Positions 31,756-56,881 of a DNA stretch of 64,000 nt are shown here, piece by piece (within the stretch, counting starts at the first letter, position 1; each line of letters begins with the position of its first letter). The position numbers and the translations under genes are program-made. The notes under the pieces were generated by a model. The model made no database searches. It was not told where the DNA came from and saw only the letters and a list, made by a program, of their open reading frames with translations. The DNA is from a phage. Location of the stretch: sequence record NC_135728.1; one strand, written 5' to 3'.

Positions 31756-31971
31756 ATGAAGATAGAAATATTTGGTGGGGCTGACAACACTCGTGGCCTG
31801 ATTTACCTTGAATTCGATGAATCATACCTGCCAGAGGTGTTAAATATGGACTCTGTTGCTGAGGCTTTGGGAGTAAGTCCTAAAGATCTCCACTCTGGTG
31901 CTGAGATTGATGGTTGGGAGGAGACCATGAACATCGATTTCAGTGAAGTAGGGGATGAACCACTGGACTGA
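31756..31971 (+). CDS. small acidic protein (MKIEIF N-terminus)
   Basis: 71 aa, RBS gaggag; last plus-strand gene before the non-coding region. Confidence 0.45.
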   Translation: MKIEIFGGADNTRGLIYLEFDESYLPEVLNMDSVAEALGVSPKDLHSGAEIDGWEETMNIDFSEVGDEPLD

Positions 31972-32199
31972 CACACAATTAGTTGCCCGGCTAAAGTGCT
32001 GGGAGCACCCATAACACATCTTTCAACTAAATTTCCTACCACCACAATCACTTACCTCCCACACATGACTGTTTGCTTGTTTAGTGAGCAGTCATGCCTT
32101 GACATTCTTGCCTATCCTGATAAAATTAAGTTCTTCTCTTTTCTTTTACCGAGTAATTCGGGTTTTCTGTTCTCTTCGGTTTGAAGGGGTATGGAGATA

Positions 32200-32840
32200 C
32201 ACCTGAGTGAACAGGGTGAACAACCGAACCATTGGCTATGGCATTAGCATGGCGAAGCGGACGGGTGACGAAAGAGGGGCCGGAGGACACCAGTCACTGC
32301 CATATGATATATGGGTGATAACCTGAAGAGTCTGAATAAGTGTTTAAGTACCAGTCAGAGGAAAAGGTGAATGGTAGCCGAAGGGGGAGGGGGGTTACCT
32401 GCTTCTGTAAACATGCATCTGAAATACTACTTTAGATAACCTGAACCTGCCTTTCTGACAAATATTCCCTATTAAACTTGAATTATTTATAGAAAATACC
32501 ACAACACCACTTAAGTCTTTGATTTTACACACAAATCTTACAGATATTAAACCTCTCTATTTAACATACCTGTAACATATACTATACTCCACCTGTCTGA
32601 TCAATTTCCCCAACTACATCCCCATATTTTCCCTGTCTGTACTACCCCTGCCCCGCCGGGAGTCCCGTCATATCTGGCTTTCCAGCAAATATCACACCCA
32701 CAAATATCATCACCTGAAGAGGGTTTCATCCCATAATACATGCCTTACCTGAAGAGCGCTTCATATACCCCGTAAATTTTTTAATTGACCCCCTCCCCGC
32801 CGCCGGAGGGGTTGGCTTTTCCCACACAAACCTGAAGAGT
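32200..32840. repeat. dispersed ACCTGAAGAG repeats in non-coding region
   Basis: ACCTGAAGAG read at about 32322, 32712, 32750 and 32830, with ACCTGA half-sites at about 32205 and 32440. Confidence 0.5.
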
Positions 32841-33394
32841 CAGCCAGAAATATCTGAACAGCCAGTTATACCACGATTTTGTGCTTGTCCTACAGGAGTG
32901 CTTCCCTGTCAGGAGCCGGTAGCGACTGGAGTGCTGCCAGGCGGACGAAATGGGAATACTTCTCATTCTTATAACAATTCTCAAATATCGAGGCAGTGAG
33001 GCAAATTAATAGGTGAGGCCGTTCACACAGTGGCACAACATTTGCAACCTATCTTGTGGGATTGAATGAGAATACCTATCATTGTGAGAACTGTTATCAT
33101 TACGGGCAATTTAACATAATACCCATTATGCGCACCACTGGCGATACATACAGGGATTTATAACATGAGTTACTGTTTACGTATATAACAATTATATTTC
33201 TTACTATTTGTGTGGGATATAGTTAGCAGCCGATAGATTAGATATTGACCTGCAGACTTCCAACCGTCTAGACGTCTAAACGCCCACACAACAAGGTTTA
33301 TACATACATTACTGAATGTAAACAGGGCCGCAAAAATGCTACCATACAAGATTGTAAATTTTTCATGCAGCACTTGACAAAGAGGAGAAAAACT

Positions 33395-33476
33395 TGTCTG
33401 ACACTTTAGACACAATAGTGACATAATATGACACCTTTGACACACTGGACACATTAAACATAATTGACATGCCTGA
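33395..33476. repeat. array of (T/A/G)GACA(C/T) hexamers at about 10-bp spacing
   Basis: tgacac, agacac, tgacat, tgacac, tgacac, ggacac, tgacat read in series in AT-rich context. Confidence 0.5.
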
Positions 33477-33509
33477 CTGTTTACATAGCTAACTATTTAC
33501 TAAAAAATG

Positions 33510-33850
33510 ATAAGCCATGCCATTCGTTTGCATGATAAAGATTAGCAAGTTAATAATCTTTCGCTGGCTATGCCAGGTGACCTTTGGTCACCCCTTCGGG
33601 TGTTTCTATGACATAATATAAAAGCAGGGCAACTATTAGCAGATCATAGTTGCCTTGCTTGTTAACACCCTTGAGACGAAGGCTTTGCCTGAGTTTATGT
33701 CATGATTAACTAAATACAAGGCAACTATGATCTGATTAATAGTTTGCAGACAAACTATCACGGGGGTGATGGTTACTGCTTTTATATTATGTCGCGACTC
33801 CGTCGCGCCATGCCATTCGTTTGCATAGTTGCCTTATTGTTACGAATAAA
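33510..33850. repeat. inverted and direct repeat complex
   Basis: 18-bp perfect inverted repeat GACATAATATAAAAGCAG / CTGCTTTTATATTATGTC (about 33611 and 33777); direct repeat GCCATGCCATTCGTTTGCAT (about 33515 and 33808); palindromes GGTGACCTTTGGTCACC and GGCAACTAT...ATAGTTGCC. Confidence 0.55.
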
Positions 33851-34452
33851 ACAATTGCATTGTTAATGATTTCTTATCTTTCTCTTAGTCATCTAATGAT
33901 TCCAGTCAGTCTAGTAATGTACAGTAAACATTAGACGACTAAAGATTTCCCTGTTTATGATAACTCACCGTGATAATTTCAGGCTGTTTACTAAAAATGT
34001 TGACACCTAAGCTGATTTATGTTATGCAGTTTACACGAATAATTATTTTATGCAGGTATTGACTATTCCGTTATTCTATGGTTGGAATAAATACTTAGCA
34101 GACTATAGAATGGTGAGCGTACGTAAATTCTGAGATCTGGCGGCTATAGTTATACTCGATTTTTCACGTAGAACACGCTTTTGTGAGTGTGTAAGTGTAT
34201 GACTTATAAAGATTTTTAGTTGTTGACAAGATATTGAAGATGTGCATCAGGTTAAATTTTGTGCAATAGCGGCATTACGTGCAATTCTGAGAGAGAAAAC
34301 GGGTAAAAATGGCCCTGCTACCACAAGATGAAAGATTATGCAATAGTTATTTTTATATGTATATTTGTACAGTAGGGTTAATTGCTGGCTTGTTGATTAT
34401 TCCACTTGCCAGGTGGGGCCGTTTGTGGTAGGAGAAATACAGACAAAAAGAA

Positions 34453-34480
34453 AGGGGCCTTTTAAAGCCCCTGATAGTTT
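34453..34480 (-). terminator. rho-independent terminator (minus strand)
   Basis: Minus-strand hairpin AGGGGC-TTTAAAA-GGCCCCT followed by TTCTTTTTGTCT after stop of 34491..34910. Confidence 0.5.
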
Positions 34481-34490
34481 AGTTAAGAAA

Positions 34491-34910
34491 TTATAATGAT
34501 TCGTATATTTCAAAAATCCGATTTGCCAGGTCGTTACGGTAGCGGAATTTTTCCTCACGTTTGATCATCAGATCTTTAAAGCCATATTCTTTAAGCACTT
34601 CATTAACTTTATGGCGGCATACCTTCATATTATCTTGTGCGTCACCAATAAACTTGTTGCTATGGTGCATGGCTTTAATTTCTTCTTCCAGGACCAGGGC
34701 AACTATGCGGACCGGATCAAGCTGATAGGCGGTAACATCAATGCGGCATTGTAAACGGCTTTTTACGTCTGCCACCGGATATACTGCAACCTCTTCCCCG
34801 TCAACATTGACAATAATTAGTTTACCATCGATTTCGAATCCTTTCGCCGCCGGACCGTGACAAAAAGCGTTATCAAAGCTATATGCCGGATTATTAGATT
34901 TAATGTTCAT
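34491..34910 (-). CDS. hypothetical protein
   Basis: 139-aa ORF with agagg RBS and upstream promoter. Confidence 0.5.
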   Translation of the reverse strand: MNIKSNNPAYSFDNAFCHGPAAKGFEIDGKLIIVNVDGEEVAVYPVADVKSRLQCRIDVTAYQLDPVRIVALVLEEEIKAMHHSNKFIGDAQDNMKVCRHKVNEVLKEYGFKDLMIKREEKFRYRNDLANRIFEIYESL

Positions 34911-54181: not shown

Positions 54182-54457
54182 CAATAGTTCAGGTAGGTCG
54201 TTAAGCTACCCCGCACCATTACGTGCATAGCCATACGTTTTCACGTAGGATCGGACCATCTCATATTCCTATGATAAGCAACCACAGGAATCCTCCCATT
54301 TCGACCGCACTTGCTGGTCTACTTCCTTTCGGAATGGCCTCTGAGCGTTCGCTCTTTTGAGCGCTTCGTTGCGGATTACCTTGCCATAAGGTTTAGGCTT
54401 CCCGCAGTTAAAGAGGTTATTCGACATAGATTACTCTATGAAGCCACAATGTTATTT
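54182..54457 (-). other. group I self-splicing intron in DNA polymerase gene
   Basis: 5' exon ends in U with U-G pair to guide sequence GUGG; intron ends in G; P10 pairing CAUU with exon-2 GAUG; core elements P AACUGCGGGAAG, Q AAUCCGCAAC, R CUCAGAGGCC, S GAGAUGGUCC in canonical order. Confidence 0.75.
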
Positions 54458-56881
54458 ATGGTAATAAATAATACGACGAACACCTTCATCGTACCACCCA
54501 CGCTTCACCATTTGGTGGTGCATGAGTATCCCAACTAAGTCACACAGCGATGCACCACCATTTTGTTGGTATGCATTAAGTAAAGAGTGTTTAGATCTGG
54601 TCCAGATAGCATGACCATCGAAAGAGTAGATAAACTTCTTACCTGTTGCTTCCCAGAATTTCTCCAGATCCTCTTTGCGCCCCTTAAGACCGGGGTTGGC
54701 ATCCCAAAGTGCATCTATTACCCTTTGCCCCAACTCTGGAGAGATGTCCAACATATCTGCAACTTTATCTTTTTGTGCCCCGTACATAACACCATACGTG
54801 ATAGGTTTACCGTCGTTACGGGACACCTCTCTGCCTGCTACTTTTGTATATGCCTCGGCATTGTTTTGGTGTGCGTCTCCGTTACTTACAACATCATAAT
54901 ACAGGCCGTTGTCGAACTCAAAGGCACCCCAAGCCCCGATAAGCTGCTCTAAGTTGGACCCGTCAATACCGATCTGAAAGTATCCGGGAGGAACACCCCA
55001 TAGACTACGCATCTCTTTACCCATAACCACTTTAGGAGATGGTTTAGGCATGTTTGCACAAATACTGTGTTTCTGTCTGGAAGTGTTTGTTAGCCCAGAA
55101 CTTTTAGCAGGAAGCTTATGGTCAATCTTCAAACGTGGGTGATTAAGAAGACCAGTATCAACCTTATCCTCCTTGATTGGGTCAAGGACCGATCTGCGGT
55201 TTCGCAATGATAACCACAAGACGATATCTTTAGCCATCTCTCCGTTCAATTTTTCAAGATTCGGACACAGGTGTCCAAACGTATCTTTCAGTTGCGGAGA
55301 AGTAATAAGTGCCCTGGCTTTTCTACGTATTTTCCCGAACACTTCCTTTTTAATCCTTTCGGAGTTAGGAAAGCTTCGGAACTTGTGCACGGTTGTCTGG
55401 AACTTAGCATCAGTTTTGTTCCAGAAGTTGATAATTAGGTCACAATACTCTGACTCTAAAAGCTCGTCCATATAAGCATATACTCGTGCATCAACATCTG
55501 CATCAGGTAGAGCTTTCTTCTTGCTGTCTTTAGTTACATCCTTAGTTCTCCACATTGTCGGGAGCCAGCCAGCGCTGATCAGATACCGCTTAATGTCGTC
55601 CTGATTGCTGATTTTCATAGGTATCTTGCAGTCCGGCATTCGCTTCTGCTGTAGATCACTTATTGCCTGATCCATCAGCTCTTTAGGCAAAGGGTGTGGT
55701 GTGGAAGTTCCCTTAATATAGCCTCTCAAGAAATCAGCCATCTTATCGGGGTCTTTGCAGCCCATCTCTTCACACCATTTTATCCCCATCTTGCTGACAT
55801 CCCCTGTAGAGGTAAATGCTCTCTTAGGCGGGGCTTTGAACTCTAAAGCGCTCATGTCTACAGGATAGCCAAGCTTATCTTTTAACCATTTCCAACCATT
55901 ATTAGAGATTGTCCCGTCTTGGTTAAACGGCTTTTCAGGGAACTTGGGCCGCTGAGACATTGACAGCTCTTTTAAAGGCAGTTGTGGTTCAACACGATCA
56001 GCTATTTCTTTCATCCACGCATCGCAACGGTCACGTAAAGCAATAGCTCCATCTATGTCGAAGTATACACCCTGACGGGCCTGCAGCTCCATCAGGAAGT
56101 GCTGCAGCATGCCTCGACGTAATGCGTTCTTCCAGGTGATCTTCTTGAACCCTTTCGGCTTCTCTTTGGCAGGATCGTACATAAAGTTCTGCATGTCAGA
56201 TTTGCCGTAGAATACACCTTTTGATTCCGCTACCAGCTCTTTCCAGAGCAGCTCCTGGATGATAACGTCCTCGAATACACGATCCACATACTTCCACAAC
56301 GGGAGATCGCGCCAGTCATCAATTTGAACTTTCTGGTTACCAAGGGCGTAGCCCCATGCCATAAGACCGTGAGGTCCAACAGGCTGCATTTTCTTAGTAA
56401 CCGGGTTAAATACTGAGTCTGGACAACCTTTTGGCAAAGGTCGGTCAGGCCACAAAATTCGGCTCATAGCCAATGTATCAAACAGATTAACCTGGTGGTC
56501 GTTGATAGTCCCCATACACTTAGGATCACGGAACATATCAAAATGAATACCGGACAATCTCTCCATCAGCATAAAGTCGTAGCTGTAGCAGTTGTGGCAG
56601 TTCAAAGCTGTGGGTGACCAGTCAGAATTGCCTGTAAGCCAACCTTCCAACTCTGAAAAATCTGCTATGCGAACTTCAAAATCTTTATAAAGAGTTTTCT
56701 TTGCCAGAATAAAGTTCTTAGCCTTCTCTATATCCTCTTCAGAGTAGTGTGTGCGGTCATTTAGAGGAAGGAACAGCATAAAACGGTTCTTATTCAGCTC
56801 TTTAAACAAGCCGCAGTGATAATAAAGATCTAGGTCTTCTAGTAAACCAGAGGCCTCCAGGTCGAAAGACCACATACTCAT
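54458..56881 (-). CDS. DNA polymerase (family A), exon 1
   Basis: 3'-5' exo motif FDLEASGL; polymerase motif A-like QIGIDGSNLEQ; motif B KPITYGVMYGA; ORF stops one codon after YYH, just before the expected HDE. Confidence 0.8.

Follow-up and report, generated by a model that had tools for sequence, protein, structure and literature searches.

The 64,000-nucleotide stretch of NC_135728.1 analyzed here (the window) derives from a Vequintavirus, an rV5-like E. coli myophage, and bears a repeat-rich module at 33510-33850 within an ORF-less gap of about 2.5 kb (about 31972-34490), which is located between convergent gene blocks on the + and - strands. In the rV5 paper, this gap is drawn as a gray box labeled "non-coding", bidirectional terminators were expected by the authors at this place and none were found, and the skew changes at the gap are described as following the direction of transcription (PMC3606486). 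The GC-skew turn at the gap coincides with the switch in transcription direction also in the window. Searches of the six flanking proteins against Pfam and PHROGs returned only PHROGs without known function, and a scan of the window for tRNA and tmRNA genes found none. A coding role for the module itself was rejected, as the 41-aa and 40-aa ORFs lying over it are frame-shifted between strains. About 120 GenBank records match the module at 77-98% identity, with one place per genome. About 18 GenBank records of the MG0656xx series named 'Campylobacter phage' (for example, A135) are Vequintavirus sequences 90-98% identical to the window; at least one of them is marked UNVERIFIED, the listed ones are unannotated, and their host label looks doubtful. 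The 139-aa gene at 34491-34910 on the - strand is a homologue of rV5 gp159/ORF 164 (phrog_12277) and occurs in some Vequintavirus genomes only, being missing from others, among them FV3, pangalan, Alma, and Gotham. Elsewhere in the window, a group I intron was detected at 54232-54467 on the - strand (Rfam RF00028, 64.7 bits), and since the large terminase gene of rV5 contains introns (PMC3606486), it is probably one of the large-terminase introns.

The features of the gap are listed below in window coordinates.

31972..32939, no strand assigned: ORF-less unique right-end DNA with four CCTGAAGAG copies and a variable CAGGAGYGCT repeat (ORF list, rV5 and navn annotation, motif count, boundary alignment).
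32940..33398, + strand: sequence homologous to the direct terminal repeat (DTR, 459 bp) of phage Gotham, predicted at both ends of the virion DNA (alignment, record ends).
33400..33471, + strand: array of GACAY boxes (GACAC or GACAT) with a spacing of 9-18 nt.
33473..33503, + strand: short remnant of a TGTTTACA/TGTTCACR array, two units with a period of 16-18 nt (alignment of 13 relatives).
33514..33533, + strand: left copy of the 20-nt direct repeat, the sole copy left in FV3.
33534..33609, + strand: variable spacer with the palindrome GGTGACC-TTT-GGTCACC, of different sequence in other Vequintavirus phages.
33589-33602, + strand: small terminator-like hairpin CACCCCTTCGGGTG within the spacer (terminator scan).
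33610..33627, + strand: left arm of the fold-back, a GACAY box with a variable extension.
33628..33775, + strand: interior of the fold-back with an inner inverted repeat, a tip insertion, a side hairpin (33753-33774), and an unpaired GTTAC.
33662-33694, + strand: lineage-specific 33-nt insertion at the hairpin tip, found in the window phage, rV5, and A135.
33776..33793, + strand: fold-back right arm, with the GACAY box inverted.
33790..33810, + strand: conserved box TGTCGC-N7-TCGCGCCA, in the window TGTCGCGACTCCGTCGCGCCA, present in all five lineages examined.
33807..33826, + strand: right copy of the 20-nt direct repeat.
33827..34340, no strand assigned: strongly conserved non-coding left-end DNA (conservation profile, 13 genomes).

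An initial annotation, made by eye from the letters, had described most of the repeats in 33510-33850 and cast doubt on its own homopolymer counts. These counts turn out to be correct on recounting, and all the repeats that it listed are present, perfect and far above chance. The arms of the 18-bp inverted repeat (33610-33627, GACATAATATAAAAGCAG; 33776-33793, CTGCTTTTATATTATGTC) are complementary at 18 of 18 positions and have 148 nt between them. Nested inside is a second perfect inverted repeat of 18 nt (33640-33657/33717-33734), and 33622-33636 can pair locally with 33646-33660 in a hairpin. GGCAACTAT is found in four copies of alternating orientation within 33628-33833; the whole window holds five against 0.59 expected, a number reached in 0 of 100 shuffles. 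The two copies of the 20-nt direct repeat GCCATGCCATTCGTTTGCAT at 33514-33533 and 33807-33826 match at 20 of 20 positions; the window has no further copy even when three mismatches are allowed, and the shuffles yielded none. The palindrome GGTGACC-TTT-GGTCACC is located at 33576-33592. The right arm at its end and the right direct repeat at its start both overlap with the conserved box TGTCGC...TCGCGCCA. Of the 33 matches to GACAYHWT in the 64-kb window, 7 fall in 33400-33793.

In the alignment of 13 relatives, the GGTGACC palindrome is found in some strains only, and from position 33607 on the sequence becomes near-invariant, comprising the fold-back, the conserved box and the right direct repeat. 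The adjoining block at 33827-34340 is 92-99% identical among 13 Vequintavirus genomes, exceeding the adjacent genes; as the 40-aa ORF at 34309-34431 is frame-shifted in relatives, coding does not explain this conservation. The copy number of both tandem arrays (GACAY and TGTTTACA/TGTTCACR) is highly variable between phages that are otherwise >90% identical (JES2013, rV5, Murica). Units of the TGTTTACA/TGTTCACR array number two in the window and up to about ten in JES2013 and rV5, and repeat_region annotations for this array exist in the navn, pangalan, and Alma records. In the right-end ORF-less DNA, CCTGAAGAG occurs on the + strand at 32322, 32713, 32748, and 32831; the window holds nine copies in total versus 0.44 expected, four others being coding, as Pro-Glu-Glu codons, and the motif is seen again in the equivalent gap of A7_1. 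Terminator-like hairpins are present at 32790-32811 on the + strand (CCCCTCCCCGCCGCCGGAGGGG), about 130 nt ahead of the terminal-repeat boundary, and at 34453-34472 on the - strand (AGGGGCTTTAAAAGGCCCCT), just past the last gene of the right block.

Among the 13 relatives, FV3 alone (NC_019517.1, about 105900-105940) is without 33534-33806 and keeps exactly one copy of the direct repeat, whereas EPFV3-03/2025 is a different phage in which the module is present. The gap in FV3 is either a natural deletion between the direct repeats or a sequencing or cloning artifact in the 2012 record. A hairpin between direct repeats is a classic slippage substrate, so the 2012 record may have lost the module in this way; if the record is correct, FV3 is viable without the module and the hairpin is not strictly essential.

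The module is older than Vequintavirus itself, as homologues exist at the corresponding genomic position in four further lineages of the Vequintavirinae. They were identified in A7_1, LTH01, and UPEC06, in the Seunavirus- and Mydovirus-like phages PVP-SE1, SEW_6S, and SalP219 together with three uncultivated contigs, and in Av-05 and TH18. The rV5 gp153 homologue did not lead to the homologous gap in other genera because gene order in Seunavirus differs, and the A7_1 gap was reached through a neighboring 90-aa protein. In each of these phages, the homologue is located in the corresponding ORF-less gap and points the same way with respect to the convergent gene blocks. The arms all begin with GACAY(A/T)AT and differ in the remainder, as in the following examples.

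Left arm GACACTATAAAACGAG, right arm CTCGTTTTATAGTGTC.
Left arm GACACTATAACACGAGAG, right arm CTCTCGTGTTATAGTGTC.
Left arm GACACAATAACGCAGTAG, right arm CTACTGCGTTATTGTGTC.
Left arm GACACAATAACACTAGGG, right arm CCCTAGTGTTATTGTGTC.

Common to all genera are only the outer stem, the unpaired GTTAC ahead of the right arm and, downstream of that arm, the box TGTCGC-N7-9-TCGCGCCA, while the interior between the arms measures 69-255 nt and has architectures that differ between genera. This distribution of shared and unshared parts suggests that what counts is the folding back, not any particular tertiary structure of an RNA. Among the non-coding pieces, the 3' box shows the highest conservation, giving a 36-nt blastn match of about 92% identity across genera, and a scan of IMG/VR with a tight pattern yielded seven true loci. 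The direct repeat, on the other hand, has an unrelated sequence in the A7_1 group, takes another arrangement in Seunavirus and is absent in Av-05 and TH18.

Single-stranded 33610-33793 (184 nt) is predicted to fold into one long branched hairpin, with z-scores against dinucleotide shuffles of -9.1 for RNA of the + strand, -8.3 for RNA of the - strand and -9.6 for DNA. Over nine distinct arm pairs, 7 of the 18 base pairs are invariant and 11 are changed on both sides, with no one-sided change; 99.4% of the cells of the arm alignment are paired, which was matched by 0 of 500 shuffles, and no slid register comes close. This covariation is solid, and the compensatory changes in relatives bear out the cruciform- or hairpin-forming potential that had been proposed at the outset. 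Arms that drift in sequence yet stay Watson-Crick complementary argue for intrastrand pairing and not for two sites of one protein. Compensatory changes account for 8 of the 65 pairs in the interior helices of the Seunavirus-type group. In helices that form on both strands, 311 Watson-Crick pairs stand against 2 G.U pairs (320 cells), and the scarcity of G.U together with the lack of one-sided changes in the arms fits pairing at the DNA level, a requirement for both strands to fold or arms serving as templates for one another. Strand-specific extra pairs occur on both strands, and the asymmetry of G.U versus A.C pairs gives no strand assignment. The + strand folds better than the - strand by 0.4-18 kcal/mol in ten of ten lineages.

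The place of the module in the genome became apparent from Gotham, for which defined virion ends with 459-bp direct terminal repeats have been described (Dias et al. 2020, PMC7471380). The repeat_region at 1-459 of the Gotham record is identical to the copy at 136567-137025 and aligns to 32940-33398 of the window. Five records from different submitters end at window position 33398 (Gotham, EdH4, ECP2309, Pr121LW, and EcoIv14a_Aya), and those starting at 32940 are Gotham and the bov10K2 group, the latter consisting of four near-identical records from one other laboratory. With the Gotham repeat mapping to 32940-33398 and the record ends clustering there, the gap can be divided into three parts, i.e., a unique right end (31972-32939), the terminal repeat (32940-33398) and a unique left end (33399-34490). 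Hence, as judged from the alignment, the ORF-less gap is the two ends of the linear virion chromosome, and the region studied here lies 112-452 bp inward of the terminal repeat on the left-end side. PhageTerm results have led several papers to describe Vequintavirus as circularly permuted or headful; the Gotham analysis and the clustered record ends are taken here as the stronger evidence, with the ends being assigned to the window phage by homology.

Short-repeat arrays of variable copy number flank both boundaries of the terminal repeat, with CAGGAGYGCT units at about 32892-32938 and the GACAY array at 33400-33471. The first GACAY box (33400) begins 1 nt past the terminal-repeat boundary; the left boundary of the repeat in Vequintavirus is marked by no more than a degenerate version of the box, GACGAAAT. 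In Seunavirus, the SEW_6S record, read in the orientation of the module, starts exactly at a GACAC box and has a 91-nt repeat at both record ends that begins with this box and stops 1 nt short of the following GACAC box. This second box is the left arm of the hairpin, so that the arm directly abuts the end. Similarly, the SalP219 record starts exactly at the left arm. Compared with PVP-SE1, SalP219 is without a 92-nt segment between two direct GACACTATAACAC boxes, and its single GACACTATAACAC box is record end and left arm of the hairpin at once. SEW_6S (PQ002171.1, vB_Sen_SG_WM_SEW_6S) carries Demerecviridae in its taxonomy line, yet its end region (about 900 nt) is 87-92% identical to that of the Seunavirus PVP-SE1. 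As repeat or record ends adjoin GACAC boxes in both Vequintavirus and Seunavirus, the end-generating cut is placed in each of these two genera at a distance of 0-1 nt ahead of a GACAY box, with the Seunavirus ends being deduced from record breaks and the 91-nt end repeat. The 18-bp arms of the fold-back are this same GACAY box in opposite orientations, and the distance from the repeat boundary to the hairpin ranges from 1 nt in Seunavirus to 211 nt in the window. The link between module and chromosome ends is likewise solid.

The position of the module beside the end, the box that it shares with the cut and the DNA-type pairing of its arms favor a role in recognition or processing of the end during packaging. 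The module might best be compared with the T7 concatemer junction, as a candidate DNA-level element by which the chromosome end is recognized or processed, a reading to which we assign about an even chance. We infer that the GACAY boxes may be recognition elements of the end-making machinery, i.e., the terminase or an associated nuclease, and that the big inverted repeat would act at the DNA level when the region is single-stranded or bent in the course of concatemer processing. Folding back would bring the two inverted boxes together, or the strand might snap back as a hairpin during duplication of the terminal repeat; the 20-nt direct repeat and the TGTCGC...TCGCGCCA box could be parts of the same architecture. 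Points against such a role at the end are the FV3 record without the module, the variable distance between boundary and hairpin, the degenerate box at the left boundary and the published descriptions of Vequintavirus genomes as permuted or headful.

As at the concatemer junction of T7 and T3, the Vequintavirinae region belongs to a linear genome whose short direct terminal repeat is bordered on either side by DNA without ORFs, with arrays of short repeats immediately outside both repeat boundaries. In T7, the terminal repeat is flanked by the short-repeat arrays SRL and SRR, and the T7 concatemer junction is reportedly the subject of a 1990 paper by Chung, Nardone, and Hinkle. A further likeness is an inverted repeat near the junction that is able to snap back, which in the Vequintavirinae is represented by folding potential and covariation only. 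Hairpin DNA containing the terminal repeat has been found during T7 infection, where duplication of the repeat during packaging needs special processing (PMC4281155). In contrast to T7 and T3, the Vequintavirinae inverted repeat is much larger (105-290 nt, branched) and located on the left-end side of the repeat, there is no sequence similarity, and the T7 promoter and pause signals are without counterpart, Vequintavirus being a myovirus that uses the host RNA polymerase. Arrays for terminase recognition are the R sites of lambda cosB, the hexamers of P1 pac and pacL/pacR of SPP1. The GACAY boxes, with their putative role, resemble these in that several copies of a short box lie beside the cleavage position in non-coding DNA, whereas none of those sites has anything like the two inverted boxes that remain complementary along 18 bp. 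The nearest documented pac or terminus in a large ORF-less gap is that of ICP1, a phage with a related replisome, the pac site of which lies in an ORF-less gap of 1.3 kb (PMC7145576).

It is also conceivable, albeit at a low probability, that the fold-back serves as a single-strand initiation device for duplicating the terminal repeat. In this case, a nick would be made beside a GACAY box, and the displaced top strand of the left end would snap into the conserved hairpin. The 5'-(G/A)TGTC-3' site and the TGTCGC...TCGCGCCA box would then be offered beside the hairpin to a T7-like primase-helicase, from which synthesis of the complementary strand could run back through the repeat. Arms templating each other in every cycle would explain their concerted evolution without one-sided changes.

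Another reading starts from the location between convergent gene blocks. A bidirectional transcription terminator or insulator, acting across the concatemer or circle junction, was indeed expected here by the rV5 authors (PMC3606486), and is considered unlikely in view of the whole evidence. According to this reading, RNA from either strand would form a hairpin with a U-tract behind it, owing to the A-rich left arm and the T-rich right arm, and read-through would thereby be blocked. The arrangement resembles intrinsic bidirectional terminators, in which a hairpin between convergent transcription units is preceded by an A-tract and followed by a T-tract. The Murica and Alma records annotate a - strand terminator at the 33622-33660 hairpin, the terminator scan gives a terminator-like site on the + strand at 33753-33774 followed by TTTTA, the near-absence of G.U pairs fits folding on both strands, and dispensability, as in FV3, is typical of terminators. 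However, an 18-bp AT-rich outer stem around a branched interior of 69-255 nt is unlike intrinsic terminators, the stem-loops of which it exceeds about tenfold in size. Sub-hairpins resembling terminators are confined to Vequintavirus, and no terminator-like hairpin with U-tract is found at the arms in PVP-SE1, Av-05, and LTH01. Moreover, the right gene block already possesses its own terminator at 34453-34472, and the GACAY box at the chromosome end as well as the conserved 3' box would be left unexplained.

A few conserved G.U pairs of the + strand and the covarying interior hairpins would fit an RNA, too. A structured small RNA gene of about 105-290 nt, expressed from the + strand of the incoming left end and functioning, for example, as decoy or regulator, is nonetheless rated as distinctly unlikely. 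Covariation of several helices, the better folding of the + strand in all ten lineages and the invariance of some + strand G.U pairs (42/170) would be expected from such a gene, and in PVP-SE1 a TTGACT-18-TATAAC sequence was spotted by eye upstream of the first box. Against it, Rfam 15 gave no gathering-score match in the region, and with E<=5 the search of 31900-34600 returned one hit only, weak and suhB-like, located at the 34453 terminator. Variation is greatest in the DNA upstream of the left arm, and searches for sigma-70 promoters upstream of either arm found no conserved candidate. The sole promoter-like -10 lies inside the arm, so a transcript starting from it would miss the 5' half of the best-supported stem. 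In addition, only 2 G.U in 320 cells of the two-strand helices and no one-sided change in the arms are atypical for RNA, and the interior architecture differs between genera.

Even less probable appears a replication origin, in which an initiator would use the GACAY and TGTTTACA arrays as iterons and the hairpin would be an unwinding or loading structure, or in which, as a variant, the GACAC boxes would be priming sites, their complement 5'-GTGTC-3' being a T7-type primase site. Direct-repeat arrays with roughly helical spacing adjoin the AT-rich hairpin region, the GACAC boxes of TH18 are spaced at exactly 53 nt, and the gap is the largest ORF-less region of the genome. Furthermore, the primase site of T7 is 5'-GTGTC-3' (PMC2910064), complementary to GACAC, and rV5 encodes a gp4-like primase-helicase (PMC3606486). 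This argument borrows the specificity of T7, though, and that of the Vequintavirinae primase itself may differ. No initiator-like protein is recognizable among the six flanking proteins, the GC-skew turn coincides with the change in transcription direction without a skew signal beyond that, and the arrays are hypervariable in copy number and nearly absent in some genera.

The initial annotation had also likened the region to a miniature inverted-repeat element (MITE), with which it indeed shares an inverted repeat within a direct repeat and, in FV3, an 'empty site' with one direct-repeat copy. This likeness breaks down, since the module is syntenic and confined to one place per record in 119 Vequintavirus records, without dispersed copies, and is conserved across the subfamily and absent elsewhere: only two IMG/VR contigs match, both Vequintavirus-like, and 24 matches in 596 Gb of bacterial genomes are single, unrelated and at chance level. 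Unlike in MITEs, the arms do not abut the direct repeats, from which they are 76 and 13 nt away; the stretch from left direct repeat to left arm differs between strains, and other genera have the direct-repeat architecture built from different sequences. The likewise proposed target for site-specific recombination is not upheld either, as no integrase, resolvase or invertase domain is found in the six neighboring proteins and the only rearrangement seen is the FV3 deletion between the direct repeats. Interpretations of GACACTATA as SP6 promoter core and of the 3' box as sigma-54 promoter or tRNA-like CCA end were dropped as unsupported.

Returning to an element for recognizing or processing the chromosome end, a description of the module was not found in the literature on this region in Vequintavirinae, which holds only the "non-coding" label of rV5 and the terminal repeats of Gotham. 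New are the identification of the gap as both chromosome ends, made here by alignment, and a subfamily-wide end-adjacent signature consisting of GACAY boxes, a covarying fold-back and the TGTCGC...TCGCGCCA box. The rV5-like phages are among the commonest isolates on E. coli and Salmonella and are used in therapy and biocontrol cocktails, while database entries for their genomes are mostly labeled "circularly permuted" and given an arbitrary start. The signature may be used for rational orientation and closing of rV5-like genomes, and it indicates sequences to keep when engineering these phages or rebooting them from synthetic DNA; one Vequintavirus, EdH4, is reportedly already open to editing by Cas13a counter-selection (PMC9712115). 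Besides, it provides specific sites for work on the recognition, cutting and duplication of chromosome ends in a myovirus whose terminal repeats are short. If the fold-back does act in initiating complementary-strand synthesis, it would represent a conserved, sequence-defined answer to the problem of terminal-repeat duplication in a large myovirus family.
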